A stretch of 64,000 bases of DNA. Source: an uncultured Alphaproteobacteria bacterium (GTDB taxonomy: Bacteria > Pseudomonadota > Alphaproteobacteria > Rhizobiales > Hyphomicrobiaceae). Positions 27,535 to 59,187 of this stretch are shown piece by piece (within the stretch, counting starts at the first letter, position 1; each line of letters opens with the position of its first letter). A model generated the notes under the pieces. The model was not told the origin of the DNA and made no database searches. It was given only the letters and a program-made list of their open reading frames with translations. Position numbers and translations under genes: made by a program. Location of the stretch: assembly GCA_963741565.1 (NCBI GenBank), contig CAVUIK010000014.1:10550-74549 (forward strand), given 5' to 3'.

Positions 27535-27548
27535 TTGACGCGCCTCAA
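27535..27548. promoter_or_regulatory. near-consensus FixK/FNR-type box TTGACGCGCCTCAA (13/14)
   Basis: Read directly from the sequence. Its centre is about 81 nt upstream of the FNT-channel ATG 27623. A 6-bp-arm palindrome AACAAT-A-ATTGTT lies at 27493-27505. Confidence 0.4.
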
Positions 27549-27622
27549 AGCCGACCCCGATGCGGTCGCTCCTAATCCAGGGATGACGAGCGCCGACAAC
27601 TTGTGGCGCGAAAGGGTTGCGA

Positions 27623-28498
27623 ATGTCGAGAGACGACGAGCATGCGGGAAATCACGGTACCGATGCGCTGTTGCCAGCTGAGATCGCACGCAAGGCCGAG
27701 CAGCTTGGCGCCCAAAAAGTGCGCGTCGATACAGTGACGTTGCTCACGCTTTCTGTGCTTGCCGGTGCCTTCATTGCGCTTGGCGCCATGTTCGCGACGA
27801 CGGTCCTGGCCGGGTCGGCTGGTGTGGTCCCCTACGGTATCAGCCGGCTGCTTGCCGGTATCGCGTTCTCCCTCGGGCTGATCCTGGTGGTCGTGGGCGG
27901 AGCTGAACTCTTTACCGGCAACACCTTGATGGTGATGGCGTGGGCCGCGGGCAAGGTCCGCCTCGCCGAGATGCTGCGCGCCTGGACGATCATCTACATC
28001 GGGAACTTCATCGGAGCATTCGGAACGGCCATCCTCGTCTTTCTCTCAGGACAACCGCTCAATGCCAATGGCTCGATCTCGAAGGTGATCATGCAACTTG
28101 CGACGGAGAAGGCCACGCTGGCGATAGATCATGCCTTTTTCCTTGGCATTCTCTGCAATGTGCTTGTCTGCCTCGCGGTGTGGCTCGCGATGGGCGCCCG
28201 CACGACCAGCGACAAAGTACTCGCGGTACTGTTCCCAGTGTCGGCCTTCGTCGTTGCGGGCTTTGAGCACTCAGTCGCCGACATGCTTCTGATTCCGCTC
28301 GGGCTCCTCCTGAAAGCCTTTGCGCCAGCCATGCTCTGGTCGGAGGCTGGCATCATGCTTTCTGACCATTCTGGTCTGACTTGGCCGGCATTTCTTCTAA
28401 GCCTCATCCCGGTGACACTCGGCAACATCATCGGCGGCGGCGTTCTCGTTGGCGGCGTCTATTGGTTCGTTTACCTCCGCCAGCCGCAGCAGCATTGA
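27623..28498 (+). CDS. formate/nitrite transporter family channel (FocA/NirC-like)
   Basis: The ORF starts at TTG 27617; ATG 27623 is the likely start. FNT signatures AELFTGN and GFEHSVADM, with six or more hydrophobic segments. Confidence 0.85.
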   Translation: MSRDDEHAGNHGTDALLPAEIARKAEQLGAQKVRVDTVTLLTLSVLAGAFIALGAMFATTVLAGSAGVVPYGISRLLAGIAFSLGLILVVVGGAELFTGNTLMVMAWAAGKVRLAEMLRAWTIIYIGNFIGAFGTAILVFLSGQPLNANGSISKVIMQLATEKATLAIDHAFFLGILCNVLVCLAVWLAMGARTTSDKVLAVLFPVSAFVVAGFEHSVADMLLIPLGLLLKAFAPAMLWSEAGIMLSDHSGLTWPAFLLSLIPVTLGNIIGGGVLVGGVYWFVYLRQPQQH

Positions 28499-28499
28499 T

Positions 28500-29070
28500 C
28501 TATGCCGCGTCACGGCCCATGGCCTCCGCCTCGGCGAGCCACTGGGCCCGCGTCTCGTCGCTGGCGGTCCCGATCATTCCGTGAATGGTCGATCGGATTG
28601 ATCCGACACCGACGAACTTGAGAATGTTGCGCTTTAGCATTTTCAGTGCGTGGGCTCCATCGTGCCACGATAGATCGAGCCTGGCATACCCATCGTGAGA
28701 ATGATCCGTGCCGACTTGCCCTTAAGCGGCTTGCCGAAGGTTCCTGCTCGATCCAATTCGATGAGGTCAGGCTGCAAAACACGTTCGATAAACCCCTTGA
28801 AGATCGCTGGAAGCGTACCGATCCAAAGTGGGAAAACCAGGACGAATGATTTGCTCCACGGATAGCATCCCAGGCGCGTTGCGGATCGGGCTCGAGCGGC
28901 TGCAGTTTGGCGTAACCTTCATGCAGAATGGGGTCGGATGCCATGTCGGCAATCACAAAGAGCTCCGCCTCGTGCCCTCCCGCCTTGGCGCCTCGCATAT
29001 AGGCCTTACCGAGAGCCTCGCAGTAAGTCCCCCTACGGGAGTGGCCGACGATGATTGCAATTTTTGACAT
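28500..29070 (-). pseudogene. NAD(P)H dehydrogenase (quinone)/flavodoxin-like-fold protein with two 1-nt frameshifts
   Basis: Frame 1 reads MSKIAIIVGHSRRGTYCEALG...AIRGANH. Frame 2 reads VLVFPLWIGTLPAIFKGFIERVLQP...GKSARIILTMGMPGSIYR. Frame 3 reads HDGAHALKMLKRNILKFVGVGSIRST...EAEAMGRDAA. The shifts are near 28845 and 28667, both in T/A dinucleotide runs. Confidence 0.7.
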
Positions 29071-29128
29071 TTGATTAAACCCTGATGGCGGCGAATTGCG
29101 TACTTGCCTGGTAAAGCGACGGTCGCGA

Positions 29129-31380
29129 CTACCACCACGCCGCGTGCTCGTAAATCACCTCTTCCTGCGCGATGTAAATCCGGACAAGCGCCTCAATCGA
29201 TTCGATCGTCCTGGACGTCACGGATGAGATAGCGGTCTGCATCGCCAACATCCAGTCCATCCGCGCTACGTGCAAGCAACCGGCCGAGATGAAGGATCTC
29301 CCGATGCGCCCGGCTAATCGCCGCGAGACCATGACCGTGGGCTAGATGCGGGACCAGGCGTGGGTAAACGGTGCGTTCGTCGTCGCGCTCATGTTCCATT
29401 ATAGTCTGTTCGACGATGCGGTGCGCCTCCGCGATCAGGGATAGCGCTGCAACTGATGGCATCGTCAAGTGCATCGGCGATGGCGCGCAGGCGGTCCAGA
29501 CCGACGAACAGCGGCTCGTGGTCGTGCTGAAGGCTCAATGCCGTTGCCGCCGGTATACCCGCGGCGCTTCCCGTCGTGGCGCCAACGCCCGCAGTGCATT
29601 GAGGATGACCGCAATATCGATGCCCTCCTGCACGAGGGCACCCGCAACCGGTGTCAACCAGCCGACGGCTGCTGCTGCCATGGCAACGCCCCAGAGCGCC
29701 ATACCCGCAACAATGCTCTGCAGGGCAATCGCGCGCGTGCGCTGCGCGATGACCAGGGCCTCAGGAACTCGGTCGAGCCGGTCGACCAGGGTCGCGATGT
29801 CAGCTGCCTCTGACGAGGCTGACGCGCCGCGTGAACCCGTCGCAATCCCGACGTCAGCAGCGGCCAGCGCCGGAGCATCGTTGATGCCGTCGCCGACCAT
29901 CACCGTCGGATGGCGTCGTTGCTCTACGCTACCGCTCGACTTGTCAGAGGGGGAACGGTCGGCAAGCACGGTATCGAGATCGAGCGCGGCGCCGATCGTC
30001 TCGGCCGCGTCGGCGCGATCCCCCTTCACGACGACGATGCGTTTGATACCCGCCGTTCGGAGCGCGGCGATCGCCTGCAGCGTGTCTCGGCGCAGCTCAT
30101 CGGCAAGCACCAGCGCGCCAACGGGCCAGCCGTCCGCCGCAATCAATACGCTCAATGCGGAGCGCCAAGAAGCTCGGCGCAGCACGCGACGGCTCCAAGC
30201 GTCGGGCTGCGTCGCCCCAAACACGTAGGCGTGCGAACCAACGCGGACGACACTGGATCCATTTGTCCTTCGAGGCCGGAGCCGACCGCCTCCGTCACGC
30301 GCGACGGAATTGTAAGCGGCAACCCTCGCGCAGCGCCAGCTGATACGATGGCTGAAGCCACCACATGCAGCGAGGCCTGTTCAAGCGAGGCAGCAAGCCG
30401 CAGTACTTCATTTGCGTCGCAGCCCGGCGCAAGCTCGATCGCGATAGACGCCCCCACCGACCGTGAGCGTACCGGTCTTGTCGAATAGCAGCATGGGCCC
30501 TGGCCAGGATCTCCATGGCGCCGCTGCCTTTAACGGGGATGCCGCGTCGTGCCGCCTGCGCAATCCCCGAGATGAAGGCCACAGGCGCGGCAAAATCAGC
30601 GGACAAGGGGTCGCTGCGACCAGCACAGCCAAGCCACGAATGGCATCGCCCGAGATCAGCCATGCTGCTGCGGCGACGATCAGCGTTACTGGAAGAAGCA
30701 GCAGGGCATAGCGATCGGCAAGCCGCATAAATGGTGCTTTGGCCGCTGAGCTGCCGTCACGAGGCGCACGATGCCGGCGTAGGTGCTATCGCCTGCGCGG
30801 GCCGTCGCACTCAACTGAAAAGACTCCCCGGCATTGACCGTGCCGCTGCGGATGAGTTCGCCCTGCTGGCGCGTCACTGGCATGGGTTCGCCGGTGAGCG
30901 CTGCCTCGTCCAGGACGGCCGTTGCGCTGAGCACCACGCCATCGACAGGGATCACCTCGCCGGACCACACGACCATTCGATCCCCGATGGTTAAATCCTC
31001 GATCGCGAGGTCAGAGATCGTACCATGCAACATGCGATGTGCAGTCCGGGGCGCACGGTCGATCAGCGAGCGCAAATCGCGCTCTGCGCGGGCCACGGCA
31101 AAGTCTTCGAGCACCGTGCCACCCGCATACATGAGGGCCACGACGCACCCGCGAGCGGTTCACGAAGGATGAGCGCTGCGGTCATCGACACGAACGCGAT
31201 GGCATCTACGCCGGCCCGGCCCGCCAACAGATCGCGCGTCATCGAGATAGCCAGCATAAGTGCGACCGGCGCGGTCCCGGCAGACCAAATCCGCAGTGCG
31301 AGCCCCGACCGCCCCCATACGCTTGCTAACAGTCCGATGCCGAGGCCAGCGAGCGTGATGGCCAGCAGAGAAATATGCAC
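29129..31380 (-). pseudogene. P1B-5-type heavy-metal P-type ATPase (TPCP motif) with a C-terminal hemerythrin-like domain, broken by about nine frame disruptions
   Basis: Consecutive homologous segments lie in alternating frames: TM region (31380), TGEP actuator domain (31141), ADRYALLLLP...ATPCPLIL (30728), AAPVAFISGIAQAARRG (frame of 30663), FDKTGTLT, IELAPG...LEQASLH (30457), GDGINDAPAL (30224), then the HHE-type segments LSLQHDHEPLF / MEHERDDERTVYP / IAQEEVIYEH (29600-29129). Confidence 0.7.
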
Positions 31381-31487
31381 GTGGCGCTCGTCAAAGCACT
31401 GCCAAATGGCGGTTCTCGCAGTGACCTTGAATTGGCGTGAGGCCCCGCCGGCGGAGGCGCGGATCGCGCCGCGTCAGGCGCCTCATC

Positions 31488-31982
31488 CTAGCCAACACCG
31501 CCGCCGCCAACTTCCACCACCTGGCGGCTGAGCAACACAGAGACGCCGAGATCGATGACCACGTCGAGCAGCATTGTGTAGGCCGTCACCCAGGCAGTCC
31601 GGGCTTGGAATGGCGACAAGGTCACATAGCCGCTCATATGCTGCAGGATGACGTAGAAGATGAGGAACAGGGGAACGATCGACGTCAGCGCATCGATCCA
31701 CATCTGGTTCTTCGTCCCGGCGCCAACCAAGATGAGGCTACCCATCTGTATCCAGATATAGGTGAGAAGGATCCAGGTCACGGCAAAATCGGATTGCACC
31801 TGCCATGTCTCTGGCGGCGTCCACCCGGCGCCGGCAATGAAGAAAAGGCCGACCGCCAAAGCCATCAAAAGTGAGGAGGATATGCTTATGGCGTATCCCT
31901 TCGCGTGCCAGCGGCGCTTTGGCACCGGATGTTCGGCGGCGATAACGCCCGCAACGCGCGATGCGGCTGTCGACTGCAGCAT
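31488..31982 (-). CDS. hypothetical integral membrane protein (about 4 TM segments)
   Basis: Intact 164-aa ORF with hydrophobic segments (LLMALAVGLFFIAG, WILLTYIWIQMGSLILVGAG, IVPLFLIFYVIL, MLLDVVIDLGVSVLL). Directly upstream of the ATPase pseudogene and preceded by a perfect FixK-type box. The start is uncertain. Confidence 0.5.
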   Translation of the reverse strand: MLQSTAASRVAGVIAAEHPVPKRRWHAKGYAISISSSLLMALAVGLFFIAGAGWTPPETWQVQSDFAVTWILLTYIWIQMGSLILVGAGTKNQMWIDALTSIVPLFLIFYVILQHMSGYVTLSPFQARTAWVTAYTMLLDVVIDLGVSVLLSRQVVEVGGGGVG

Positions 31983-32063
31983 TCTGACCTCCCACGAGTT
32001 CTATACAGACGCGCAATTCCGCGACGCTCTATTTCAAGAATTCAGACGACGCGACTGGCGACC

Positions 32064-32077
32064 TTGACCGATATCAA
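32064..32077. promoter_or_regulatory. perfect FixK/FNR-type box TTGACCGATATCAA
   Basis: Read directly from the sequence. Its centre is 88 nt upstream of gene start 31982 (minus strand), consistent with a class-II (-41.5) promoter. Confidence 0.6.
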
Positions 32078-32089
32078 GCGGGGCAAAGG

Positions 32090-33178
32090 TCAATTGGGTG
32101 CCGATCCCAGATGTGACGTTGGAGCTACCGCGCCCGGAAGCAAGCCATGCCGGAGTTCGTCCGCCCGCCGCGCCGAGGCCGACCATTCAGCTATCCGGAC
32201 GTAATTGTCGGTGAACCAGTTGAGCGCACCGAGTACAATCGTAAAAGCTGCGGCAAGTTGCATGATCGCGCCAAGCGATAGCTCGCCGCTTAGGTACTTC
32301 GGGGACGCCAAGAGCAAGGGCAGGATCGGCGAGAAGAACGAATGTGAGTTGGTCAGCCATGTCAGCCGGCAATATTCTCGAATGACACGATGCCATCGAC
32401 GGGTCACTTTGGCGAATGCTGCCGCTGCAGGCTCGAACGCATCAGCGTCACTGCTCTCACGAGCCTTGAGAGCGCGGCCTTCTACTTCGCGCGTCAATTC
32501 GAACAGGAACTGTGCTTCGGACTCGTTTTTCTCCGCGACGCAACGAATCAAGGGTTGCCCAACGAGGTGCATCACCAGCGACAGAACGGCAGCGTACGCG
32601 ACTGCCGCCATTGCGAGATAGGCTGGGATCGTCAATCGAAATGATGCGAGCTCGAGTGTCATCGATCCACCGACAACAATCAGAATGCCGACGAACGTCC
32701 CTCCAAGTATTGCCGCGTTTGCAAAGCCAATCCCTAAGTCGACAACTGGATCAAGTGCCAACCGGACATCCTCTGCTAGGCGAAACGCCGGGCTTCCGTG
32801 GTTTTCGTTGGCAACGTGGAGCTGTCCGGTTCTTGATCGCGCGATCCACATGTCGATCAATTTGATGGTGACCACGCGTCTCAGTTCAAGCTGTAGCGTC
32901 ATACGGCACCACATCATCGACACGGCAAACGCGGCTCCGGAAACGATCAGACCAGAAAGAGCAACGATAGCGCCAAAGAGCTTGCCAGCCTCCCGCTGCT
33001 CAAGCATGTCAAAGAACCAGCGATGCCAATGATTAAATCCGATATTGACCGCGAGGTTGAGGACCAGGAGCCCGACCACTCCGCCCACCAGTGCTCTTGC
33101 GGTAGCAGCGCTCGACTTCGAGACGCTATCCCAGGCAAAGAACAGGAATCCCAATGCCGTGCCGCGTGGAGGCAACAC
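32090..33178 (-). CDS. SbmA/BacA-like inner-membrane transporter (ABC-type transmembrane domain without ATPase domain)
   Basis: 362 aa. The pattern WRWFFDMLEQRE...FRLAEDVRLALDPVVDL...TWLTNSHSFFSPILPLLLASPKY is typical of the SbmA_BacA / YddA TMD family. There is no Walker motif. Confidence 0.65.
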   Translation of the reverse strand: MLPPRGTALGFLFFAWDSVSKSSAATARALVGGVVGLLVLNLAVNIGFNHWHRWFFDMLEQREAGKLFGAIVALSGLIVSGAAFAVSMMWCRMTLQLELRRVVTIKLIDMWIARSRTGQLHVANENHGSPAFRLAEDVRLALDPVVDLGIGFANAAILGGTFVGILIVVGGSMTLELASFRLTIPAYLAMAAVAYAAVLSLVMHLVGQPLIRCVAEKNESEAQFLFELTREVEGRALKARESSDADAFEPAAAAFAKVTRRWHRVIREYCRLTWLTNSHSFFSPILPLLLASPKYLSGELSLGAIMQLAAAFTIVLGALNWFTDNYVRIAEWSASARRADELRHGLLPGAVAPTSHLGSAPN

Positions 33179-33379
33179 TGCGTGGCCAATTCCACTTGGC
33201 TCAGATGCGTTCTTCAGGGTGATCCCCTATTTGTCCTCTGCACAATTGTTATGCGTGAACCCAAAGCCGACACTCGCAATTGATATGTGTCATTGAAGTG
33301 AGAGCGCCCAACCGGGAGCGTAGCTGACGTCGCGCATCGTCCGGACCGCTACGCGCGCCGCAGCCGGAGGCCTATTTCC

Positions 33380-34660
33380 GTGAGTAGAACCATGCAAGAA
33401 AAAGCGCGCGTCGACCTGGAACAGATCATCGGTGCGGGCACGTCTTCGGCGCCGAGTTGGACGCAACGTCGGGACGTCAAATGGACCGCAGTGGCGGTGT
33501 TAGGGCTCTTGCTGGTGGGGCTAGCATCGTCGTTCAGCAGCAAGTCCGGGGCTGTCCGTTACCTCACTGAGCCCGCGAGCCGCGGAAGTTTGGTTGTCGT
33601 CGTAACCGCGACTGGCTCGGTGCAACCAATCAACAAGGTGGATGTCTCCAGTGAACTCTCCGGAACCGTCCGCAAGGTTCTGGTGGATTACAACTCACCT
33701 GTGGTTTTGGGGCAGACGCTCGCGGAGCTCGATGCCGATAAGTTGAAAGCGACCGCCGATAGTTCCCGCGCGAAAGTCGCTGCGGCATTGGCTAAGGTGG
33801 CGGACGCCAATGTGACGATCGTAGAAAAGCAACGTGAACTGGTCCGGAAGAAGTCGCTTTCGGCCAAGCAGTACTCTTCAACCCACGATCTCGACGTTGC
33901 GCAAGCGGCTTACGATCGCGCAGTTGCGGCGGCAGGAAGCGCACGCGCCGACATGGGCGTCGCTGAAGCTGAGTTGAAACTCAGTGAGACAAATCTTGCC
34001 AAGGCCATCATTGCGTCGCCAATCAATGGCGTGGTCTTGAAGCGCAATGTCGACCCGGGCCAGACTGTGGCCTCATCGTTTCAGGCCCCTGTCCTGTTCT
34101 CGATAGCGGAAAACCTGAAGCAGATGGAGCTGCAGGTCGACGTCGACGAAGCCGATGTCGGCAAAGTCAGAGCTGGGCAGAACGCCAGCTTCGGCGTCGA
34201 TGCGTTTCCGGACCGAAAATTCCCAGCAAGCATTCGCGACGTACGTTTCGCATCCGAGACCATCCAAGGCGTTGTCACGTACAAGGCCGTGCTGAGCGTC
34301 GACAACTCCGAGCTGTTGCTGCGGCCGGGTATGACTGCGACGGCAGAGATCAGGGTGACGGAGCTCACAAATGCGTTGTTGGTCCCGAATGCGGCGTTGC
34401 GCTACAGGCCATCGGTGGGCGACACCACGGACAACCGGAGTTTTCTGCGTCGGTTGCTGCCAGGTCCGCCCCAGTTCCGACCGGCAAGTCCGAATGAGGA
34501 AACGGGCCCGCACCGTACGGTGTGGAAGCTGCAAAATGGCGTCCCAGTGCCGGTGAAGGTGACGATTGGCATGAGCGACGGCAAGCGCACGCAAATCCTG
34601 GGCGAAGACGTGCCAACAGGCGAGGCATTGATTGTCGACCAAGCCGCCGCCAAGCTGTGA
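33380..34660 (+). CDS. HlyD-family periplasmic adaptor (MacA-like)
   Basis: 426 aa with an N-terminal TM anchor, a coiled-coil hairpin, and the barrel motifs ASPINGVVLKRNVDPGQTV and LLRPGMTATAEI. Confidence 0.85.
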   Translation: MSRTMQEKARVDLEQIIGAGTSSAPSWTQRRDVKWTAVAVLGLLLVGLASSFSSKSGAVRYLTEPASRGSLVVVVTATGSVQPINKVDVSSELSGTVRKVLVDYNSPVVLGQTLAELDADKLKATADSSRAKVAAALAKVADANVTIVEKQRELVRKKSLSAKQYSSTHDLDVAQAAYDRAVAAAGSARADMGVAEAELKLSETNLAKAIIASPINGVVLKRNVDPGQTVASSFQAPVLFSIAENLKQMELQVDVDEADVGKVRAGQNASFGVDAFPDRKFPASIRDVRFASETIQGVVTYKAVLSVDNSELLLRPGMTATAEIRVTELTNALLVPNAALRYRPSVGDTTDNRSFLRRLLPGPPQFRPASPNEETGPHRTVWKLQNGVPVPVKVTIGMSDGKRTQILGEDVPTGEALIVDQAAAKL

Positions 34661-34674
34661 AGGGCCACTTTGCT

Positions 34675-35391
34675 GTGAAAGATGCCAACGTCACGCCTCC
34701 TCTGATCGAATTCCAGGCCGTCACTAAGACGTACGGAAGTGGAGCCGCAACCGTGCACGCGCTCGATGGTGTCGATCTGACAATCGAGGAGGGGGAGTTC
34801 GTGGCTATCATGGGTCCATCGGGTTCCGGCAAGTCGACGGCCATGAATATCATCGGTTGCCTCGATACGCCGACCACAGGCGAGTACCGCTTCAACGGCG
34901 TCGACATCGGCCGCCTCGCGCGCAATCAGCGCGCATTGATCCGCCGCCATTTTCTCGGCTTCGTCTTCCAGGGATTTAATCTACTGTCGAGGACGACAGC
35001 CGCGGAGAATGTCGAGCTGCCGCTGATCTATCGGGGCTTGCCGGTCGCTGAACGGCGACAGCTTGCAGCCCGCGCGCTCGAGCGGGTTGGCCTTTCTGGA
35101 CGCGAGAGCCACACAGCATCAGCGCTTTCCGGCGGCCAACAGCAGCGGGTCGCGATTGCGCGGGCAATTGTCACCGATCCCGGAGTTCTCCTCGCTGACG
35201 AGCCGACTGGAAACCTCGATACCAAGACCAGTCGGGAGATTATGGACCTGGTACAGAGCCTAAATCGAGATCAGCGAATGACGATCGTAATGGTTACTCA
35301 CGAGACGGACATTGCCGCCTATGCACGACGGAACATTCGGTTCGTCGATGGACGGATTGAAAGCGATACCCACAACAAGCAGGTGGCGTGA
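34675..35391 (+). CDS. ABC transporter ATP-binding protein (MacB/LolD type, separate polypeptide)
   Basis: GTG 34675 lies 15 nt after the adaptor stop. Walker [10 protein letters not shown], signature LSGGQQQRV, Walker B LLADEPT. Confidence 0.85.
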
Positions 35392-45272: not shown

Positions 45273-45278
45273 ATTGCC

Positions 45279-46613: not shown

Positions 46614-46654
46614 CTCTTCGGGCGACTTAACGAACCCGTCAGGGGAGGCGACAC

Positions 46655-46996: not shown

Positions 46997-47046
46997 GCCC
47001 AAATATCGCCACCTACGGCGCAATTGAACTGAAACAGAGAGCGATC

Positions 47047-47397
47047 ATGACTATCCCAAATGCATCAGCGAGCCGGCGAGACAAGACGCCATATGCGCGT
47101 CACCTGGATGCCGTTGCTTGGTCCCTCTTGTTGATCTGGATCGGTTTTACCGCACTCGCCGATGTTGGATGGGGATGGGCCTTGCTTGGCACGAGCGGGA
47201 TTACTCTTGGGGCACAACTCACTCTCTGGCGACGAGGCGAGACAATCGACGCCTTCCCGGTTGCCTGCGGTGTGGTGTTCCTTGTCGGCGGCGTCTGGGC
47301 GTTGCTCGGCCTGACGTGGCCGCTTGCCCCAGTCTTGCTCGTCCTGCTTGGCGCGGCAATGCTTTGGAACGCCATGTTTGGCACGCAAGCACAATAG
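47047..47397 (+). CDS. small hypothetical membrane protein (3 TM segments)
   Basis: 116 aa with hydrophobic segments WSLLLIWIGFTALA, GWALLGTSGITLGAQL and VVFLVGGVWALLGLTWPLAPVLLVLLGAAML. Confidence 0.55.
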   Translation: MTIPNASASRRDKTPYARHLDAVAWSLLLIWIGFTALADVGWGWALLGTSGITLGAQLTLWRRGETIDAFPVACGVVFLVGGVWALLGLTWPLAPVLLVLLGAAMLWNAMFGTQAQ

Positions 47398-50706: not shown

Positions 50707-50720
50707 TTGACGAGCGTCAA
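50707..50720. promoter_or_regulatory. perfect FixK/FNR-type box TTGACGAGCGTCAA in the divergent DevBCA-like/RND promoter region
   Basis: Read directly from the sequence. Its centre is 69 nt from ATG 50644 (minus strand) and 94 nt from ATG 50808 (plus strand). Confidence 0.55.
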
Positions 50721-50807: not shown

Positions 50808-51878
50808 ATGCAAGCGCCCGGCCGGCACACGTGGACTTGCCTTATGGTGCTCACTGCAATCGCGGTTTATTCCGTCGGCTGGGCGCAGTCCTTGTGGGCC
50901 CAGCAATCGGCCGTGGCAACAGCTATTGCGCCACAAACGTTCCAGGTGGTCGAGCTTGAGGTCGATGATTTCAAGGCCGTGTTCGCAACGGTGCGCAGCA
51001 AGGACCGCATTGATGCGCGCGTTCGCACGCCCGGTACGGTGGTCTCGCTGAAGGTCGACGAGGGCGCCCACGTCGAGGCCGGACAGGTGCTGGCCGTTCT
51101 AGCCGATCCCAAGATCGCACTGAAGATCAAGGCGTTGGATGCCCAGATCCTCGGGCTCGAGTCGCGGGTCGCCAACGCCAAGCTCGATTACGACCGCGCC
51201 GAGCAGCTTCGGCAACGCGGCGTCAGCCCTCAAGCTCGCGTCGATCAGCTCAAAACGGCCCACGACCTTGCGGCCAACGAGCTCAAGTCCCTGCGCGCGG
51301 AAAGGCAGGTCGCCGAGGAGCAGGTTGCTGAAGGACGGGTGCTGGCACCGGCCGCCGGCCGCGTGCTCAAAGTACCGGTCACGACCGGCACCGTCATGAT
51401 GGCCGGAGAGAGTGTCGCCACGATTGCCGCCAACCTCTACTTGCTCCGCCTCGAGTTGCCGGAGCGGCATGCCCGTTTCATGAAGAAGGGTGACACAATC
51501 AAGCTCGGCGCCCGTGGACTTTCTCTGGATCAGCAGGTGATCGGTGAGGGCCGCATCGTGCAGGTGTATCCTGAGCTGCAGGGCGGTCGTGTGATTGCAG
51601 ACGCTGAAGCGCCGAAGCTCGGCGACTACTTCGTCGGTGAGCGAGCCCTCGTTTGGATCTCCGCCGGCAAGCGCAAAACGATGGTCATTCCCGCAAGCTT
51701 CACGTTCCGGCGCTTCGGCCTCGATTACGTGCGCGTCGCACGCATGGACGGGGCGACGCAAGACATCGTCGTGCAACTTGGCCAAGCCGCGCCGATCGAC
51801 AATGGTACCGACGGCATCGAGGTTCTGGCCGGCCTGGTTGCCGGTGACGCCATCGTTCGCGTTGGAGCGCAGCCATGA
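50808..51878 (+). CDS. RND efflux periplasmic adaptor (membrane fusion protein)
   Basis: The ORF starts at GTG 50802. ATG 50808 lies 8 nt after GGAGAG. It has a signal/anchor, a lipoyl-like motif (VDEGAHVEAGQVLAVL) and a coiled coil. Confidence 0.85.
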   Translation: MQAPGRHTWTCLMVLTAIAVYSVGWAQSLWAQQSAVATAIAPQTFQVVELEVDDFKAVFATVRSKDRIDARVRTPGTVVSLKVDEGAHVEAGQVLAVLADPKIALKIKALDAQILGLESRVANAKLDYDRAEQLRQRGVSPQARVDQLKTAHDLAANELKSLRAERQVAEEQVAEGRVLAPAAGRVLKVPVTTGTVMMAGESVATIAANLYLLRLELPERHARFMKKGDTIKLGARGLSLDQQVIGEGRIVQVYPELQGGRVIADAEAPKLGDYFVGERALVWISAGKRKTMVIPASFTFRRFGLDYVRVARMDGATQDIVVQLGQAAPIDNGTDGIEVLAGLVAGDAIVRVGAQP

Positions 51879-54800
51879 CGGTCGAGAACGGAGCGTCCGG
51901 GCCAGAGCGGGTCGGCGAGACTTCGCTCGGCCTCTCCGGACACCTGACACGTTTTTTCATCGGTTCGCCGCTGACGCCGTTGCTTCTGCTCGCCGCGTTT
52001 GCGCTCGGCGTCGTCGCGCTGTTTGCGCTGCCGCGTGAGGAGGAACCGCAAATCTCGGTACCGATGGTCGATATCTTCGTGCGCACTGATGGTCTCAGAG
52101 CCGAGGACGGCGTGCGCCTCGTCACCGAGCCGTTGGAGACCATTGTCAAGGCCATCAACGGCGTCGAGCACGTCTACTCCAACTCGGCCGACGATCGCGT
52201 GGTGGTGACGGCCCGCTTCCTGGTCGGCACCAAGGTGGACGAGGCCATTCTCCGCGTGCACGAGAAGGTGCGTGGCAACCTCGACCGCATCCCGACCGGC
52301 ATCCCGGAGCCTCTGATCGTGGGTCGCGGTATCGACGACGTCGCGATCGTCACCCTGACCCTCGCACCGACCGCGGCAGCGGCGCCCCGTTATCACGACA
52401 ACGCCCTCTATCACCTGGCTGAGAACTTGCAGATCGAGCTTGCCAAGCTCGATGATGTCGGCCTGTCCTACATTGTCGGTGGCCGCCCCGATCAGATCCG
52501 CGTGGAGCCCGATCCGGAGAAGCTGGCGCTCTATGGCGTCACGCTGGCCCAGCTCACTGCCAAGGTGCGCGACGCCAACCGCTCGTTCCAGGCCGGCCGC
52601 ATTCGCGATCGCAACCGGAGCATTGTCGTTACCGCTGGTCAGACGTTGCGTGGTGTGCCCGACATCGGCCTGCTGCTCATCGCGACGCGCGACGGTCGCG
52701 CCGTCTACGTTCGTGACGTCGCCAATGTCGTCATCGGCGCCAAGCCACTGGAGCGGCAAGCGTGGCACTTCCGCAAAACCGTCGACGGCAAGCTCGAGCG
52801 CGTACCCGCCGTGACGATCGCGCTGGCCAAACGCGCCGGGGCCAATGCCGTCGTGATCGCCGAGCGCATCCGGCATCGCCTCGCCGCTCTCACGGGGACG
52901 ATGGTACCGAGGGACATCGAGGTCGTCGTCACGCGCGACTATGGCGAAACGGCCAATGAGAAGGCCAATGAGCTTCTTCTGCATCTCGGCCTCGCCACGG
53001 TCTCGATCGTGCTCTTGATGGGGATCGTGATCGGGTGGCGCGAAGGCCTCGTCGTCTTGATCGTGATCCCGACGACGATCCTGCTGACGTTGTTTGCGTC
53101 CTACGCCATGGGCTACACGATCAATCGCGTCAGCCTGTTCGCGCTCATTTTTTCGATCGGTATCCTGGTCGACGACGCCATCGTCGTCATTGAAAACATC
53201 GCCCGGCACTGGGCCATGGGTGACGGACGCAGCCGGACGCAGGCTGCGGTCGAGGCTGTGGCCGAGGTCGGTAACCCCACCATCGTGGCGACGCTGACCG
53301 TCGTTGCCGCACTGCTGCCGATGCTGTTCGTGTCAGGCTTGATGGGGCCCTACATGGCCCCCATTCCGGCCAATGCGTCCGCGGCAATGGTGCTTTCGTT
53401 CTTCGTGGCTGTCATGGTGACACCGTGGCTGATGCTGCGGCTGGCGGGGGGCGCACCCGTGCACGCCGCGCACCACACGGGGGACGAAGGCGGCTGGCTC
53501 GGTCGCGCTTATGTGCGCGTCGCGCAACCAATCGTGGCGACGCGACGGACGGCGTGGCGTTTTCTCGTCATCGTCGGCGTGGCCACGCTTGCCTCCCTGC
53601 TGATGTTCGCCACCAAATCGGTGACGGTCAAGTTGCTGCCCTTCGACAACAAATCGGAGTTGCAGGTTGTCCTTGATCTACCGCGCGGCGCCTCGCTCGA
53701 GGCCACGGATCGGGCACTGCTGGCGGCGACCGAGCGGCTTGGCGGGCTGCCCGAGCTGTCCTCGATCCAGGCCTACGTCGGCACGGCCGCGCCATTCAAT
53801 TTCAATGGGCTCGTACGGCATTCCTATCTGCGGTCCGATCCGGAGCAGGGCGATCTCCAGATCAATCTGACGCCGAAGGTCGCACGCAAGCGGACAAGCC
53901 ACGAAATTGCGCTTGACGTGCGCCGTCGCCTGAAGGATCTGGGCCTACCCGACGGTACCGCGCTCAAGGTCGTCGAAGTGCCGCCCGGCCCGCCGGTCCT
54001 CGCGACCCTCCTCGCCGAGATCTACGGGCCCGATGCCGAGACGCGGCGCGCCATCGCCCGCGAAGTCCGCAGCATTTTTCGCGGCATTCCCTTCATCGTC
54101 GATGACGACGACAGTTTTGGAGTCGAGGCGCCTCGCCTCAAAGTCTCGATCGACCAGGACAATCTCGAATTCCACAAGGTCGAGGAGCGCGATGTCTATG
54201 ACGCGATCCAGGCCTACATGGGCGGCGTTGCCGTCGGCTATTCACATCGCGGCGGCGGGCGGCATCCCGTCGAGATCGCCATTCAATTGCCCAAGCCCAA
54301 GCTCGCCGTATCAGCCCAAACGCTGACAACACCGGTGCCAGCCAATGCGCTACCGGGCGAACGCGGCATCGTCGAGCTTGGCGACGTTGTCAGCCTCAAG
54401 CTTGAGAAGGCCTCGTTTCCGATCTTCCGGCACAACGGCCGCCCCGCCGAAATGGTGATGGCCGAGCTTGCTGGCGCATACGAGGCGCCACTCTACGGCA
54501 TGCTCGCGGTCGGCGACGCCATCAAGAAGAAGGACTGGGGAACGCTCGCCCGGCCCGAGATCCGTTTTCATGGGCAGCCCGAGAGCGAGGCAAAACCCGT
54601 GCTGCTCTGGGACGGAGAGTGGGAGGTGACCTGGGTCACCTTCCGCGACATGGGTGCAGCATTTGGCGTGGCCCTGCTCGGCATCTACATTCTCGTCGTC
54701 GCTCAGTTCGGTTCGTTCAAGCTGCCGCTCGTGATCCTAACGCCCGTGCCGCTGACGCTGATCGGCATCATGCTCGGCCACTGGATGTTCCGGGCGCCGT

Positions 54801-55162
54801 TCTCGGCGACGTCGATGATCGGGTTCATTGCACTCGCCGGCATCATCGTGCGCAACTCGATCCTGCTCGTCGACTTCATCCGGCAGCGCAGCTTCGCCGA
54901 CTTGCCCTTGCGTCAAGTCCTGCTCGAGGCCGGCGCCATCCGCTTCAAGCCAATCCTGCTCACCGCTATCGCTGCCATGATCGGCGCCGCCGTCATCCTG
55001 TTCGATCCGATCTTCCAGGGTCTCGCGATATCGCTGCTGTTCGGCCTTGCCTCGTCGACGATGCTAACGGTGCTGGTGATTCCAGCCATATACATCGCGC
55101 TCCGCGATGACGGACGTCTTTTAGTCGCTGAGGAGGTTCCAGAGCCTCCGGCTCAGGGATGA
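51875..55162 (+). CDS. RND efflux transporter permease (AcrB/CzcA superfamily)
   Basis: 1095 aa. ATGA overlap with the adaptor. Twelve TM segments and two large periplasmic loops. Confidence 0.9.
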   Translation: MTVENGASGPERVGETSLGLSGHLTRFFIGSPLTPLLLLAAFALGVVALFALPREEEPQISVPMVDIFVRTDGLRAEDGVRLVTEPLETIVKAINGVEHVYSNSADDRVVVTARFLVGTKVDEAILRVHEKVRGNLDRIPTGIPEPLIVGRGIDDVAIVTLTLAPTAAAAPRYHDNALYHLAENLQIELAKLDDVGLSYIVGGRPDQIRVEPDPEKLALYGVTLAQLTAKVRDANRSFQAGRIRDRNRSIVVTAGQTLRGVPDIGLLLIATRDGRAVYVRDVANVVIGAKPLERQAWHFRKTVDGKLERVPAVTIALAKRAGANAVVIAERIRHRLAALTGTMVPRDIEVVVTRDYGETANEKANELLLHLGLATVSIVLLMGIVIGWREGLVVLIVIPTTILLTLFASYAMGYTINRVSLFALIFSIGILVDDAIVVIENIARHWAMGDGRSRTQAAVEAVAEVGNPTIVATLTVVAALLPMLFVSGLMGPYMAPIPANASAAMVLSFFVAVMVTPWLMLRLAGGAPVHAAHHTGDEGGWLGRAYVRVAQPIVATRRTAWRFLVIVGVATLASLLMFATKSVTVKLLPFDNKSELQVVLDLPRGASLEATDRALLAATERLGGLPELSSIQAYVGTAAPFNFNGLVRHSYLRSDPEQGDLQINLTPKVARKRTSHEIALDVRRRLKDLGLPDGTALKVVEVPPGPPVLATLLAEIYGPDAETRRAIAREVRSIFRGIPFIVDDDDSFGVEAPRLKVSIDQDNLEFHKVEERDVYDAIQAYMGGVAVGYSHRGGGRHPVEIAIQLPKPKLAVSAQTLTTPVPANALPGERGIVELGDVVSLKLEKASFPIFRHNGRPAEMVMAELAGAYEAPLYGMLAVGDAIKKKDWGTLARPEIRFHGQPESEAKPVLLWDGEWEVTWVTFRDMGAAFGVALLGIYILVVAQFGSFKLPLVILTPVPLTLIGIMLGHWMFRAPFSATSMIGFIALAGIIVRNSILLVDFIRQRSFADLPLRQVLLEAGAIRFKPILLTAIAAMIGAAVILFDPIFQGLAISLLFGLASSTMLTVLVIPAIYIALRDDGRLLVAEEVPEPPAQG

Positions 55163-55541: not shown

Positions 55542-55555
55542 TTGATCCGGATCAA
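55542..55555. promoter_or_regulatory. perfect palindromic FixK/FNR box TTGATCCGGATCAA upstream of ccoN
   Basis: Read directly from the sequence. Its centre is 78 nt upstream of ATG 55627. This is the classical arrangement for fixNOQP/ccoNOQP promoters. Confidence 0.8.
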
Positions 55556-55626
55556 ATCCCCCGCGATCGACTTTGGTTAGGTGACCTCCGCGTAGGCAGC
55601 GCGTGTTGAACGGCCACGGGGGCATC

Positions 55627-57282
55627 ATGCCGGATACGACGGCGGAGAAGGAAGCGCTTGGCGACAGCGGGGCCGTTTTAGTGGCCGCAATTGTCGGAAT
55701 GATCGGCCTCATCCTGGCGCTTGGATCCCAGGACACCGCGATGATCTTTCATGGGTCACTGTTGGCCGTCGCAGGCAGTCTCGGTGCAATTGCGATCCTT
55801 GGCCATTCGGCAGGCCGCCCGGCAAGTGATCAGACAGCGACATACTTCGATGGGCCAATCAAGGTGGCGACGATCGCCGCTATCGTGTGGGGCATTGCGG
55901 GCTTCGTCGTCGGCGACGTGCTGGCTTGGCAGCTTGCGTTTCCCGCACTCAATCTCGATCTGCCATGGACGAGTTTCGGACGTTTGCGCCCCCTGCACAC
56001 GTCCGCGGTGATCTTTGCGTTTGGCGGAAACGTCCTGATCGCGACCTCATTCTATGTCGTGCAGCGTACGAGCCACGCGCGCCTCGCCGGCCGCTGGTCT
56101 CCGTGGTTCGTCGTCTGGGGCTACCAGCTGTTCATTACCATTGCCGGTACTGGTTACTTGCTCGGGGTCACGCAAAGCAAGGAATACGCCGAGCCCGAAT
56201 GGTACGCTGACCTTCTGCTGACCGTCGTGTGGGTCCTCTATCTGCTTGTGTTTCTCGGAACGCTGGCGCGGCGCCGGGAGCCTCACATCTACGTCGCCAA
56301 CTGGTTCTTCCTGGCGTTCATAGTAACGGTGGCGATGCTGCATCTCGTGAACAATGCGAGCATCCCGGTTTCGCTGACGGGCAGCAAGAGCTACATCGTC
56401 TACGCTGGCGTACAGGATGCCATGACGCAATGGTGGTATGGCCACAACGCCGTTGGCTTCTTCCTCACCGCTGGGTTCCTCGGCATCATGTACTACTTTA
56501 TTCCGAAGCGTGTAGAGCGGCCGGTTTATTCCTATCGTCTCTCCATCGTGCACTTCTGGACATTGATCTTCCTCTACATCTGGGCCGGGCCGCACCATCT
56601 CCATTATACGGCGCTACCGGACTGGGCGCAGACGCTCGGCATGGTGTTCTCGATCATGCTGTGGATGCCGTCGTGGGGTGGCATGATCAATGGCCTCATG
56701 ACGCTCGCTGGCGCCTGGGACAAACTCAGAACCGATCCGGTCGTCCGCCTGCTCGTTGTGTCGGTGGCGTTCTACGGCATGTCTACATTCGAGGGACCGT
56801 TGATGAGCATCAAAGCCGTCAACTCGCTCTCGCATTACACGGACTGGACCATCGGTCACGTGCACTCGGGGGCGCTCGGCTGGGTGGCTATGGTTTCGTT
56901 CGGCGCCATCTATTGCCTGGTGCCGTGGCTCTGGAATCGGCGCGGGCTCTACTCCTTGAAACTCGTCGAGTGGCACTTCTGGATCTCGACCATCGGTATC
57001 CTGCTGTACATCACGGCCATGTGGGTTTCCGGGATCACGCAGGGCCTGATGTGGCGCGCCTACGACAAGCTCGGCTTCCTGCAGTATTCGTTCATCGAGA
57101 CGGTCGAAGCGATGAAGCCGTATTACGTGATCCGCGCCATTGGCGGGCTCCTTTTTATCATCGGCTCGCTGATCATGGCCTACAATGCCTGGCGCACAAT
57201 TCGGGGTGATGCCCTGCAGGACGAGGCGGACCAGCCGCGCGTTGCGGCGGCACCGGCATTGCGCCTCCAGCCAGCCGAATGA
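55627..57282 (+). CDS. ccoN: cbb3-type cytochrome c oxidase subunit I
   Basis: The ORF starts at GTG 55603; ATG 55627 is the likely start. A haem-copper oxidase core with many TM segments and the conserved segments [29 protein letters not shown] and HHLHYT. Confidence 0.9.
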
Positions 57283-57297
57283 CAGGGAAGTCGCAAT

Positions 57298-58026
57298 ATA
57301 AATCACGCTGTTTTCGAGAGGAATTCTCTGATTCTTCTGATCGGGATTCTTGTCGTCGTATCGATCGGCGGAATGGTGCAGATCGCCCCGCTGTTCTGGG
57401 TCGATAGTACCATCGAAAAGGTCAGAGGCATGCGGCCCTACACGCCACTCGAGCAGGCTGGCCGCGACATTTACGTGCGTGAAGGCTGCTACGGTTGCCA
57501 CAGCCAAATGATCCGAACGCTGCGCGACGAGGTCGAGCGCTACGGGCACTACAGTCTTGCCGCCGAAAGCATGTACGACCATCCCTTTCAATGGGGCTCG
57601 AAGCGCACGGGACCAGATTTGGCGCGCGTCGGTGGCAAGTATTCAGATCAATGGCAGGCTGATCACATCGTCAATCCACGTGCGCTCGTGCCGGAAAGCA
57701 TCATGCCAGGCTATCCTTGGATGGCCAATACACCTCTCAGAACGGATGACATTGCGGCAAAGCTCAAGACGCTCCGCATGGTCGGTGTGCCTTATAGCGA
57801 CGAAATGATCGCAAAGGTCCAGGCCGATCTGAAAGCCCAACTTGATCCGGACAGTCGTGCAGCCCGTGAACTTTTGGGGCGTTACCCCAAGGCAAAAGTG
57901 CTGCGTTACGACCGGTCGGCGGCAGTCGGGCCGACCGAACTCGATGCACTGATCGCCTACCTTCAGATCCTCGGCCAGATGGTGGACTTCGCCACCTTCG
58001 ATGCGGTCGGGCCGAACCTGCGCTGA
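57298..58026 (+). CDS. ccoO: cbb3-type oxidase subunit II (monohaem); no canonical start codon for its conserved N-terminal TM helix
   Basis: The track ORF begins at ATG 57373 (MVQIAPLF...). The frame is open from 57283 and encodes [24 protein letters not shown], the conserved CcoO membrane anchor. There is no ATG, GTG or TTG in 57283-57372. ATA 57298 lies 8 nt after GGGAAG. Haem motif CYGCHSQ. Confidence 0.8.
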
Positions 58027-58033
58027 GGCCACC

Positions 58034-58222
58034 ATGACTTACACGACCATCGCCACCATCAGTCAGGTAGCGTCCCTGTTGATGTTTATCGCCATGTTCG
58101 CGGCGGTACTCGCCTACGCCCTCCGGCCCGCAAACGGCAAGCGTTTCGACGATATTCAACGTCGCTCGCTTGATCTGGAGGGGATGGACACCAAAGCCGG
58201 GGGCGGCCATGAGCAAGCCTGA
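58034..58222 (+). CDS. ccoQ: cbb3-type oxidase small subunit
   Basis: ATG 58034. 62 aa with a single TM segment (IATISQVASLLMFIAMFAAVLAYAL). It sits between ccoO and ccoP. Confidence 0.75.
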   Translation: MTYTTIATISQVASLLMFIAMFAAVLAYALRPANGKRFDDIQRRSLDLEGMDTKAGGGHEQA

Positions 58223-59075
58223 GATTGATGACGTCACCGGCGTCGCGACGACGGGACACGAATGGGACGGCATCAAGGAATTGAACAAGCCGTTGCCGCG
58301 GTGGTGGCTCCTGACATTTTACGCCTGCATTGTGTGGGCCGTCGGGTACATGATTGCCTATCCCACTTGGCCTACAATCGCCGGTTACACCAAAGGCGTG
58401 CTCGGCTATAGCCAACGTGAGGCCGTGGCGAAAGAGATCGCCGACGCGAGCCGTGCCCAGGCCGGCATGCGTGAGCAGCTGGCGAAGACGCCGTTTATCG
58501 AGATCAAAGCCAATTCAGAGTTGTTGCGCTTTGCGATGGCCGGCGGTCTGGTCGCATTCCAGGCCAACTGCGCGCCCTGTCACGGACGTGGCGCGCAGGG
58601 GTTTGTCGGCTATCCAAACCTCAACGACGACGACTGGATCTGGGGTGGCGCGGTCGACCAAATCCACAAAACAATCTTGTACGGTGTCCGCTCGGAACAC
58701 AAGGATACGCGCAACAGCCAGATGCCGCGCTACGGCATCGACAAGCTGTTGACCGACGCACAAATCAACGACGCCGCCGAATACATACTCTCAATCTCTG
58801 GCCGGGCAGCAGACACTGCAGCCGTCACGCGCGGAGCCGCGGTATTTAAAGAGCAGTGCGCTCTCTGCCATAGCGACGAGGGCCGGGGCAAGATTGAGCA
58901 GGGCGCGCCAAACCTGACTGACGGTATTTGGCTCTATGGCGGCGACAAAGCGGCCATTGTCGAGAGTATCCGCACCGGTCGCGGCGGTGCCATGCCGGCG
59001 TGGGCAGGGCGACTTGATCCGGTAACGCTCAAAGCGCTGGCGATTTACGTGCACAGCCTCGGTGGCGGCAAGTAG
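58209..59075 (+). CDS. ccoP: cbb3-type oxidase subunit III (dihaem)
   Basis: ATG 58209 overlaps ccoQ by 14 nt. N-terminal HEWDGIKELNKPLPRWW motif. Two haem motifs, CAPCH and CALCH. Confidence 0.9.
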   Translation: MSKPEIDDVTGVATTGHEWDGIKELNKPLPRWWLLTFYACIVWAVGYMIAYPTWPTIAGYTKGVLGYSQREAVAKEIADASRAQAGMREQLAKTPFIEIKANSELLRFAMAGGLVAFQANCAPCHGRGAQGFVGYPNLNDDDWIWGGAVDQIHKTILYGVRSEHKDTRNSQMPRYGIDKLLTDAQINDAAEYILSISGRAADTAAVTRGAAVFKEQCALCHSDEGRGKIEQGAPNLTDGIWLYGGDKAAIVESIRTGRGGAMPAWAGRLDPVTLKALAIYVHSLGGGK

Positions 59076-59173
59076 GAGGCCCCGGCTCAGGAGATACGCC
59101 ATGTGTTTCTGGCCATGCGCGACCGTCGCGATGCCGCAGAAAGTTGCCCTCGGCGCCTCTGCTATTGAACCGA

Positions 59174-59187
59174 CTGATTTGGATCAA
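59174..59187. promoter_or_regulatory. near-consensus FixK/FNR-type box CTGATTTGGATCAA (13/14) upstream of ccoG
   Basis: Read directly from the sequence. It lies in the 210-nt ccoP-ccoG spacer. Confidence 0.45.

Follow-up and report, generated by a model that had tools for sequence, protein, structure and literature searches.

The stretch of DNA analysed here (the window) comprises 64,000 nucleotides (nt) from an uncultured alphaproteobacterium of the family Hyphomicrobiaceae and corresponds to positions 10550-74549 of contig C14 in a 5.11-Mb, 19-contig assembly. Its second half carries a series of palindromes of the form TTGAY-N4-RTCAA, the box recognised by FixK- and FNR-type transcription regulators. 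The boxes lie upstream of genes for the cbb3-type oxidase (ccoNOQP), a CBS-BON protein with a cytochrome c, exporters, and an isoaspartate methyltransferase fusion, among others. Genes were annotated with Pfam and NCBIfam, and boxes were located by pattern scan. The boxes considered as operators and the genes or open reading frames (ORFs) next to them are listed below in window positions; box distances are taken from the box centre where stated, and a 13/14 box has a single mismatch.

29138-31982, minus strand: membrane protein of 164 amino acids (aa) (31488-31982, intact), then a P1B-5-type ATPase with a hemerythrin tail (~31389 to 29138, frameshifted; E1-E2_ATPase, Hydrolase and Hemerythrin fragments)
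32064-32077, no strand: perfect box TTGACCGATATCAA, leftward, centred 88.5 nt before the start of the 164-aa membrane protein at 31982
33280-33293, no strand: 13/14 box TTGATATGTGTCAT, 105.5 nt 5' of the MacA-like gene
33392-36596, plus strand: MacAB-like exporter, with adaptor, ABC ATPase and MacB_PCD/FtsX permease (Pfam; NCBIfam MacA-like, RND_mfp)
40362-41503, minus strand: Dom34/eRF1-like protein (41105-41503, 132 aa; Pfam eRF1_2 below threshold, E 0.0086), then a cytochrome c-like ORF (40362-40826; weak Cytochrome_CBB3 match)
41586-41599, no strand: perfect box TTGATACCGGTCAA, leftward, centred 89.5 nt before the ATG at 41503
41909-41922, no strand: perfect box TTGATCGACATCAA, rightward, intergenic, 353 nt 5' of the Pcm-EreA gene
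41965-42160, plus strand: frameshifted 3' remnant of groEL (last ~55 codons), between the 41909 box and the Pcm-EreA gene
42269-45614, plus strand: Pcm-EreA-like fusion (42269-44272; Pfam PCMT and Erythro_esteras), CbpA-like DnaJ protein (44325-45272; DnaJ and DnaJ_C), CbpM-like protein (45279-45614; MerR_2)
45841-45854, no strand: perfect box TTGATTGCGGTCAA, centred 73.5 nt before the CBS-BON start at 45921
45921-47397, plus strand: CBS-CBS-BON protein (45921-46613), cytochrome c (46655-46996), 116-aa ORF (47047-47397) (Pfam CBS, BON, Cytochrom_C)
47542-50644, minus strand: HlyD adaptor (49442-50644), FtsX/MacB permease (48312-49445), ABC ATPase (47542-48309) (Pfam; NCBIfam RND_mfp)
50707-50720, no strand: perfect box TTGACGAGCGTCAA, in the 163-nt region between the divergent HlyD-ABC and RND operons, centred 69.5 nt from 50644 (minus strand) and 94.5 nt from the ATG at 50808
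50808-55162, plus strand: RND adaptor and AcrB-family pump (Pfam HlyD_3, ACR_tran)
55542-55555, no strand: perfect box TTGATCCGGATCAA, centred 54.5 nt before the ccoN start at 55603
55603-59075, plus strand: ccoNOQP, the canonical FixK target (Pfam COX1, FixO, FixQ, FixP_N/Cytochrome_CBB3)
59174-59187, no strand: 13/14 box CTGATTTGGATCAA, 105.5 nt 5' of ccoG
59286-60380, plus strand: ccoG (Pfam Fer4_18), interrupted at ~60338 by a contig junction

The window holds seven perfect boxes, at 32064, 41586, 41909, 45841, 50707, 55542 and 56800. Dinucleotide shuffling of the window (100 shuffles) gave a mean of 0.19 perfect sites and a maximum of 2, and no shuffle reached seven. With up to one mismatch allowed, 18 sites are present against 4.3 expected. 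Six of the seven perfect sites are intergenic, and only that at 56800 lies within coding DNA, in ccoN. The preliminary description of this DNA had reported five perfect boxes (32064, 41586, 45841, 50707 and 55542) and three 13/14 boxes (27535, 33280 and 59174), all of which were recovered at the same positions. Its distance of 54-95 nt from box to start codon agrees with the 54.5-94.5 nt of those five perfect sites, and its chance figure of 0.25 perfect sites is roughly that of the shuffles. Its count was incomplete, since the perfect boxes at 41909 and 56800 and a 13/14 box at 37161 had been overlooked.

A genome-wide scan with background statistics, the check proposed in the preliminary description, returned 28 perfect sites, 17 of them intergenic and 11 coding. 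First-order Markov expectations are 2.0 sites for the intergenic compartment (0.81 Mb, 16%) and 8.3 for the coding compartment (4.30 Mb). Boxes are therefore at chance in coding DNA (P 0.22) and enriched ~8-fold between genes (P about 8e-11), so that the result which the preliminary description had named as refuting its reading, a similar density in coding sequence, is not what the scan shows. Six of the 17 intergenic sites fall within a 23.5-kb part of the window, where 0.08 would be expected (P about 3e-10), and a second cluster of three sites is found at C8:1025612-1036703. Across 24 genomes of the genus the pattern occurs 7-38 times each, while a reversed-pattern control occurs 0-8 times each and three times in this genome. 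The 13/14 class behaves differently: there are 74 intergenic sites genome-wide against 51.5 expected, and coding sites are themselves 1.8-fold above their own expectation, which amounts to no intergenic enrichment. Each 13/14 site thus needs support of its own. Variants of the TTGAG type show mild intergenic enrichment (5/15).

The genome encodes three Crp-family proteins above the cut-off of an HTH_Crp_2 search, and only the one at C8:1026668-1027402 has an E--SR recognition helix (GLTIETVSRTF; LTIETVSR). Its best match in the PDB is FixK2 (4I2O, E 1.8e-31), with the helix GLT(I/L)ETVSR aligned, and FixK is its best NCBIfam model. The N-terminus has no Cys-X2-Cys-X5-Cys motif. A regulator of FixK/FNR type had been anticipated; the FixK half of that expectation is borne out by the helix and the FixK2 match, whereas an iron-sulfur (Fe-S) FNR is not, owing to the missing Cys cluster. 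Usp genes, a CBS-BON paralogue and the gene of a FixL-like kinase share the second box cluster with fixK itself. The intergenic perfect boxes and the 13/14 box at 33280, and probably that at 59174, are very probably operator sites of this single FixK-type regulator and mark a predicted low-oxygen regulon. This central reading, already put forward in the preliminary description, is supported by the intergenic enrichment, by the cognate regulator and by conservation of the boxes ahead of homologous genes.

The FixL-like kinase gene is 6 kb from fixK. Its product combines a MASE3 N-terminus, a heme-PAS domain, a kinase and a C-terminal receiver; the PAS domain matches the heme domains of FixL from Sinorhizobium meliloti and Bradyrhizobium japonicum at E about 1e-33 to 1e-34, the HDGYL segment included, and the kinase and receiver regions are matched by NCBIfam hybrid-kinase models. 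An OmpR-type regulator (C8:1032882-1033622) adjoins the kinase and is 68% identical to a plasmid protein of Terrarubrum flagellatum and 53% identical to a plasmid regulator of S. meliloti, whose gene in turn adjoins genes for a PAS kinase and a Crp/Fnr regulator. This is the gene arrangement expected of an hFixL-FxkR-FixKf module, and suggests an FxkR-like identity for the OmpR-type protein. Upstream of fixK (C8:1026560-1026605, about 80-105 nt upstream) is a 10-bp-periodic direct repeat, GTTACAattgCACACAattgCTCACA (GTTACA-ATTG-CACACA-ATTG-CTCACA). It is similar to the FxkR K-box, GTTACA-N4-GTTACA, but looser and not a match to it, and the neighbouring OmpR-type regulator may bind there. At C8:1025554-1025625, the space between two divergent Usp genes contains a 13/14 box, TTGATCTGGCTCAA, and a perfect one, TTGACCATGATCAA, in tandem. 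The right-hand Usp gene precedes fixK by 117 nt, and the regulator may therefore control its own expression by feedback.

Conservation was examined mostly in 23 genomes of the same genus. As the canonical FixK target, ccoNOQP is the reference case. It is the only cbb3 oxidase operon of the genome, ccoN is single-copy, and of 80 ccoN loci compared across Alphaproteobacteria about 70 have a perfect box shortly 5' of the gene. The nearest relatives by ccoN are Hyphomicrobiaceae metagenome-assembled genomes (up to 86% identity). The box at 59174 is a plausible ccoG operator: among 66 ccoP-ccoG spacers from the same taxonomic order, 4 carry a perfect box and 13 a one-mismatch box, the Bradyrhizobium TTGAGCTGGATCAA being one of these 17, and none of the 17 belongs to the closest Hyphomicrobiaceae.

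The CBS-BON gene forms an operon with the cytochrome c gene and the 116-aa ORF (intergene gaps of 41 and 50 nt; a Pfam search with the latter was without match). Same-genus homologues carry TTGA-N6-TCAA 65-93 nt 5' of the start in 19 of 22 loci, with protein identity of just 38-62% and varying box cores. The MacA-like gene, which is preceded by a 13/14 box, is well supported. Its orthologous promoters have a related box at -84 to -108 in 10 of 10 cases. In 7 of them it is within one mismatch, mostly as TTGAG-N4-ATCAA, with TTGATTGAGGTCAA also present; the others read TTGCG-N4-GTCAA. The HlyD-ABC tripartite exporter is a conserved target of the 50707 box on comparative evidence, as a perfect box stands 5' of four of nine HlyD homologues in the genus. 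On the opposite side of this box the RND start at 50808 has a GGAGAG ribosome-binding site, and a -10-like GAGAAT lies exactly 22 nt past the box. Bidirectional use of the box is possible.

The box at 41909 is separated from the Pcm-EreA gene by a groEL scar. Six-frame translation gives ...DAGIIDPTEVVRIVLENAS and then, in another frame, ...LVASVLLLTAATMADLP, peptides that we take to be the GroEL C-terminus. Searched against the genome by tblastn, the translation of 41500-42270 in six frames matched only itself. In genome G018 the Pcm-EreA orthologue directly follows a groEL-like ORF that is intact and 488 aa or more in length. Perfect boxes precede the Pcm-EreA or Pcm operon in three of six loci (L116-L120, L132), at -408 in G009, -897 in G006 and -698 in G023, with Hsp20 between box and Pcm gene in G006 and G023. 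The order Pcm-EreA, CbpA, CbpM recurs in G009 and G006, and the Pcm part exceeds the NCBIfam cut-off for protein-L-isoaspartate O-methyltransferase (253.7 bits against 188). The fusion is a single ORF that joins a complete isoaspartate methyltransferase to an erythromycin-esterase-like domain. It occurs at 76-87% identity in G009, G006 and G018, and G009 has a second, degraded copy.

The Dom34-like protein belongs to a family with no Pfam model, whose homologues, about 132 aa long, form over 1700 clusters; databases name its members ‘stalled ribosome rescue protein Dom34’ or ‘translational machinery protein’. Perfect boxes stand at -69.5 before the G012 homologue (64% identity) and at -82.5 before one from a metagenome (L219), and no box was seen in the other four of six contexts (G016 and three others). 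Between the boxes at 41586 and 41909, the non-coding DNA at 41688-41720 contains a 15-nt direct repeat, TCAGGCTGCCGCATT, in two copies 5 nt apart. The 164-aa membrane protein is without match in Pfam and NCBIfam searches. In G018, its sole close homologue (55% identity) is likewise preceded by a perfect box, at -76.5. The P1B-5 ATPase gene behind it switches frame at least six times over three frames when searched by tblastn with the intact 795-aa orthologue of G023 as query.

Most of the targets named in the preliminary description fared well in these comparisons. Its ccoNOQP and CBS-BON/cytochrome c assignments agree with the conserved boxes, its eRF1-like target (minus strand, 41503 to 41105) is upheld by the two boxed homologues in six contexts, and the MacAB promoter, offered there as no more than possible, has a degenerate box at the same position in every ortholog compared. 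For the membrane protein with the P1B-5 ATPase, the box is confirmed in the one close homologue, and the ATPase proves to be a heavily frameshifted pseudogene.

Alignment of 37 promoters by their boxes brings out a T-A-T-A-n-T signal at box positions 37-42; 22 of the 37 have T at position 42, against a background of 19%. Further downstream there is a purine-rich ribosome-binding signal. Class-II promoters of Escherichia coli FNR have a palindrome of TTGAT half-sites with a 4-bp core near -41.5 and a -10 hexamer 22 bp past the box. The boxes here resemble these in sequence and, as inferred from the 37 promoters, in geometry. A -10 hexamer at positions 37-42 would place the box centre at -41.5; the alignment is supportive of this class-II geometry, not conclusive. 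The regulator here differs from E. coli FNR in having no [4Fe-4S] Cys cluster, and oxygen would therefore be sensed upstream, via the FixL-type kinase, and not by the DNA-binding protein.

That FixK binds the boxes, that it activates the genes, that this depends on oxygen and which sensor pathway lies upstream are inferred from these sequence features. At low oxygen, the hybrid heme-PAS FixL-like kinase and the OmpR-type, FxkR-like regulator would raise the level of FixK. A FixK dimer would then occupy each TTGAY-N4-RTCAA palindrome about 41.5 bp before the transcription start and, as a class-II activator, recruit RNA polymerase. The genes activated in this manner would be the cbb3 operon, the CBS-BON and cytochrome c genes, the Pcm-EreA/CbpA/CbpM operon and the Dom34/eRF1-like gene, together with two ABC-type tripartite exporters and the small membrane protein that precedes the dead P1B-5 ATPase.

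Three further matches in the window are of a different standing:

27535-27548, no strand: 13/14 box TTGACGCGCCTCAA, 81.5 nt 5' of the FNT channel gene; unsupported
37161, no strand: 13/14 box TTGATCCTGGTCAT, 95 nt 5' of a small ORF
56800-56813, no strand: perfect match TTGATGAGCATCAA, inside ccoN, in the codons for PLMSIK

The match at 56800 was considered as an internal promoter and rejected. It lies within ccoN codons, none of 80 ccoN loci shares a box there, and coding matches are at chance level; it is judged to be a chance match. The site at 27535 has a CCTAAT hexamer, -10-like, at the expected distance. The small ORF that follows the 37161 box (37161-37407) has an ATG at about 37262, an AGGAG ribosome-binding site and about 48 codons, and precedes a P2-type cation ATPase gene.

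Several observations weigh against the proposal that these boxes are FixK operators of a working low-oxygen regulon. Ten FNT homologues, two of them at 81% identity, have no box within one mismatch at a comparable position, and the FNT target that the preliminary description had considered possible is accordingly without comparative support. The 37161 box is not kept at the orthologous P2-ATPase locus of G022 (92% identity). With no conservation even in orthologues that are 81-92% identical, the sites at 27535 and 37161 are left unsupported as FixK sites. Box conservation is likewise absent on the RND side of 50707, where none of 11 RND-adaptor orthologues (60-69% identity) has a box within 1.5 kb upstream; of the two efflux systems previously assigned to this box, the HlyD-ABC exporter stands and the RND pump is no more than a possible second target. 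Inspection of the promoter on the HlyD side revealed no clear -10, and several single -10 elements are weak (this one and that of 41586). The 37 aligned promoters are not independent, as some are close orthologues. The intergenic and coding labels rest on the rough calls of our own codon-usage gene caller, trained on this genome; it put 40853-41500 on the wrong strand, where the real gene is the minus-strand Dom34-like ORF. Both the regulator and the kinase score under the NCBIfam equivalog cut-offs for FixK (149.5 bits against 300 for the regulator) and FixL. The FxkR K-box GTTACA-N4-GTTACA, at up to two mismatches, was not found near or upstream of fixK. In the FixL-like gene (C8:1033644-1036458, minus strand), an in-frame TGA at 1035964-1035966 falls in the MASE3 domain, and the frame shifts by +1 at ‘...GAMF|DITERKQ’, before the heme-PAS domain. 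Neither lesion is in a long homopolymer; they may be real or assembly errors, and oxygen sensing could be broken if they are real.

These lesions bear on one alternative, that the boxes are relics of a decaying regulon no longer under oxygen control. Besides the TGA and the frameshift of the FixL-like gene, it draws on the at least six frame changes of the P1B-5 ATPase, the groEL scar and a 1-nt frameshift in ccoI (fixI; C3:~1857), within the conserved ...DES-(V)LITGES... motif, because of which the ATPase for cbb3 assembly may lack activity in the genome as assembled. We consider decay improbable, as all six intergenic boxes are perfect 14-mers and ccoNOQP, FixK, the FxkR-like regulator and most targets are intact, and FixK could be expressed without the kinase. 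Moreover, the lesions could be errors of what appears to be a metagenome assembly, as a chimeric junction suggests: the window right of the ccoG junction (60338-60556) jumps to a GC content of 0.67-0.70 and carries a truncated glutamate dehydrogenase gene on the minus strand, while contig C3 opens with residues 368-517 of ccoG, followed by ccoH and ccoI (C3:3-3172). At this ccoG/glutamate dehydrogenase junction, contig C14 is probably a chimera or has been rearranged.

The boxes might also be genuine CRP/FNR-type sites that serve another member of the family (an Fe-S FNR/FnrN, a nitric oxide-responsive NnrR/DNR or a cyclic nucleotide-responsive Crp) or another signal. FNR, FixK and DNR recognise near-identical sequences and their regulons can overlap (Dufour 2010), and the genome does encode two more Crp-family proteins (C11:78705-79520 and C5:120944-121654). 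Their helices, however, read SRGNVSR and SRPKVNA and lack E--SR, none of the three Crp-family proteins has an FNR-type Cys cluster, and it is the FixK-type gene that sits within the second box cluster with the Usp genes, the CBS-BON paralogue and the FixL-like kinase. This possibility is accordingly given the same low weight as decay. Hardly any weight is left for an artefact of chance or composition, or for copies of one duplicated promoter segment or repeat. A duplicated promoter has reportedly been found for FixJ-dependent genes on S. meliloti pSymA, and the region here is a mosaic with an IS630 element, a tRNA-Gly, pseudogenes and a GC content of 0.58-0.65. Nevertheless, a chance origin is rejected by the shuffles, none of which had seven sites, by the per-compartment Markov expectation, with enrichment in intergenic DNA alone, and by the reversed-pattern control. 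Duplication is rejected because the box regions, extended by 100 nt on each side, align only at the box itself (pairwise local scores of at most 19, against a shuffled maximum of 18); promoter regions that share nothing outside the box are not copies of one promoter or repeat. Boxes are, besides, kept 5' of homologues elsewhere with unrelated spacers. Regulation of these genes by FixK thus remains the preferred reading.

In relatives, single box-plus-operon modules are kept but dispersed. Synteny of the whole cluster was considered and rejected, as only individual modules recur, and the two genus genomes for which box positions were listed have clusters of at most three boxes. Among the sampled relatives, the tight clustering of boxes beside ccoNOQP is specific to this genome. 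After a tRNA-Gly(CCC) gene (24140-24214) come two ORFs of an IS630-family transposase (24140-25879 in all); this is likely the left edge of a variable, island-like region of patchy GC content that runs to ccoNOQP. In G022 (C3:64252-67832 of that genome) the FNT and P2-type ATPase genes are divergent neighbours 255 nt apart, whereas in the window (27623-40178) about 9 kb separates them, occupied by NQO-like and P1B-5 pseudogenes, the 164-aa gene, a BacA-like gene and the MacAB-like operon, which argues for local rearrangement or insertion. A bolder reading, which we regard as unlikely, is that the DNA between the tRNA-Gly gene (24140) and ccoNOQP makes up a ‘hypoxia island’, mosaic and possibly mobile, that has gathered a third of the FixK promoters beside the only cbb3 oxidase and is run by an hFixL-FxkR-FixK cascade outside the Rhizobiaceae. 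It is raised because the clustering is statistically extreme and absent from sampled relatives, and because the cascade neighbourhood recurs on a Terrarubrum plasmid beside ccoNOQPG. If true, such an island would couple two ABC-type tripartite exporters (and perhaps the RND pump, through a shared bidirectional box), the Pcm-EreA/CbpA/CbpM operon and the Dom34-like factor to oxygen limitation.

The predicted regulon can be set against three known systems. Among the members of the conserved FixK regulon that Dufour, Kiley and Donohue (2010; PMC2908626) predicted for Alphaproteobacteria are Hsp20, an HlyD-family protein, a permease and a subunit of ABC type, a CBS-domain signal protein and a class I cytochrome c. 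For the CBS, Hsp20 and cytochrome c members, their paper cites dependence on FixK2 or FixK in B. japonicum and Rhodopseudomonas palustris, with the CBS-domain protein blr6074 and Hsp20 blr4637 as FixK2 regulon members in the former. The same families stand behind boxes here, and the target set is therefore largely expected. In contrast, Pcm-EreA/CbpA/CbpM, the Dom34-like protein and the 164-aa protein with the P1B-5 ATPase are not in their list, the targets here are packed into 24 kb, and Hyphomicrobiaceae go unmentioned in their text (‘hyphomicrobi’ occurs 0 times). Candidate additions are Pcm-EreA/CbpA/CbpM, the Dom34-like protein, the density of sites and an hFixL/FxkR-type module in Hyphomicrobiaceae and Terrirubraceae. 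As to P1B-5 ATPases, Nia of S. meliloti is reported to be expressed in nodules. Nia is a member of the FixJ regulon.

The FixLJ-FixK2 system of Bradyrhizobium diazoefficiens (japonicum) shares with this genome the box TTGA(T/C)-N4-(A/G)TCAA and the recognition helix, and its FixK2 regulon has targets in common: fixNOQP, fixGHIS (with an imperfect TTGAG box, seen in Bradyrhizobium loci), a CBS-domain protein (blr6074) and Hsp20 (blr4637). The systems differ in that no FixJ-type partner was identified here, a hybrid kinase and an OmpR-type regulator being present instead, and in the host, a member of the Hyphomicrobiaceae with no symbiosis genes seen in the window. LPMSRRD of 4I2O aligns to LPMTRTD in the present FixK; the aligned position is one that we take to be Cys183 of FixK2, crystallised as C183S. 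With Thr at this position, the oxidation switch is probably absent.

The closest sensory counterpart is the hFixL-FxkR-FixKf cascade of Rhizobium etli, Rhizobium leguminosarum and S. meliloti (Zamorano-Sanchez 2012, as cited in PMC4999443; Rutten 2021, PMC7888657), the origin of which was placed in the Rhizobiaceae by Tsoy et al. (2016; PMC4999443). Shared features are a hybrid FixL-type kinase with heme-PAS and C-terminal receiver, an adjacent OmpR-type regulator, a Cys-less FixK, and a comparable three-gene neighbourhood on S. meliloti and Terrarubrum plasmids. Here, unlike in that cascade, no canonical K-box precedes fixK, and the kinase begins with a MASE3 domain and has an interrupted gene in the assembly. 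On the T. flagellatum plasmid (L220; NZ_CP091853.1, 159994-174704), genes for a helix-turn-helix-domain regulator, an OmpR-type regulator and a PAS kinase adjoin ccoNOQPG. As Terrarubrum belongs to another family of the Hyphomicrobiales, the hybrid-FixL/FxkR-type module would not be confined to Rhizobiaceae, the only family in which Tsoy et al. had placed it.

The accepted picture of FixK is unchanged by these results, and their value lies in annotation and in the choice of promoters to test. Through them, a genus of Hyphomicrobiaceae that is uncultivated or little studied gains a FixK regulon predicted from sequence, and independent genomes back targets that Dufour and colleagues had only predicted, namely the HlyD/ABC exporters, the CBS-BON protein and cytochrome c. 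The presence of a hybrid-FixL/FxkR-type sensor module beyond the Rhizobiaceae is suggested, and the candidate additions to the regulon point to protein repair and translation quality control as possible parts of the low-oxygen response.

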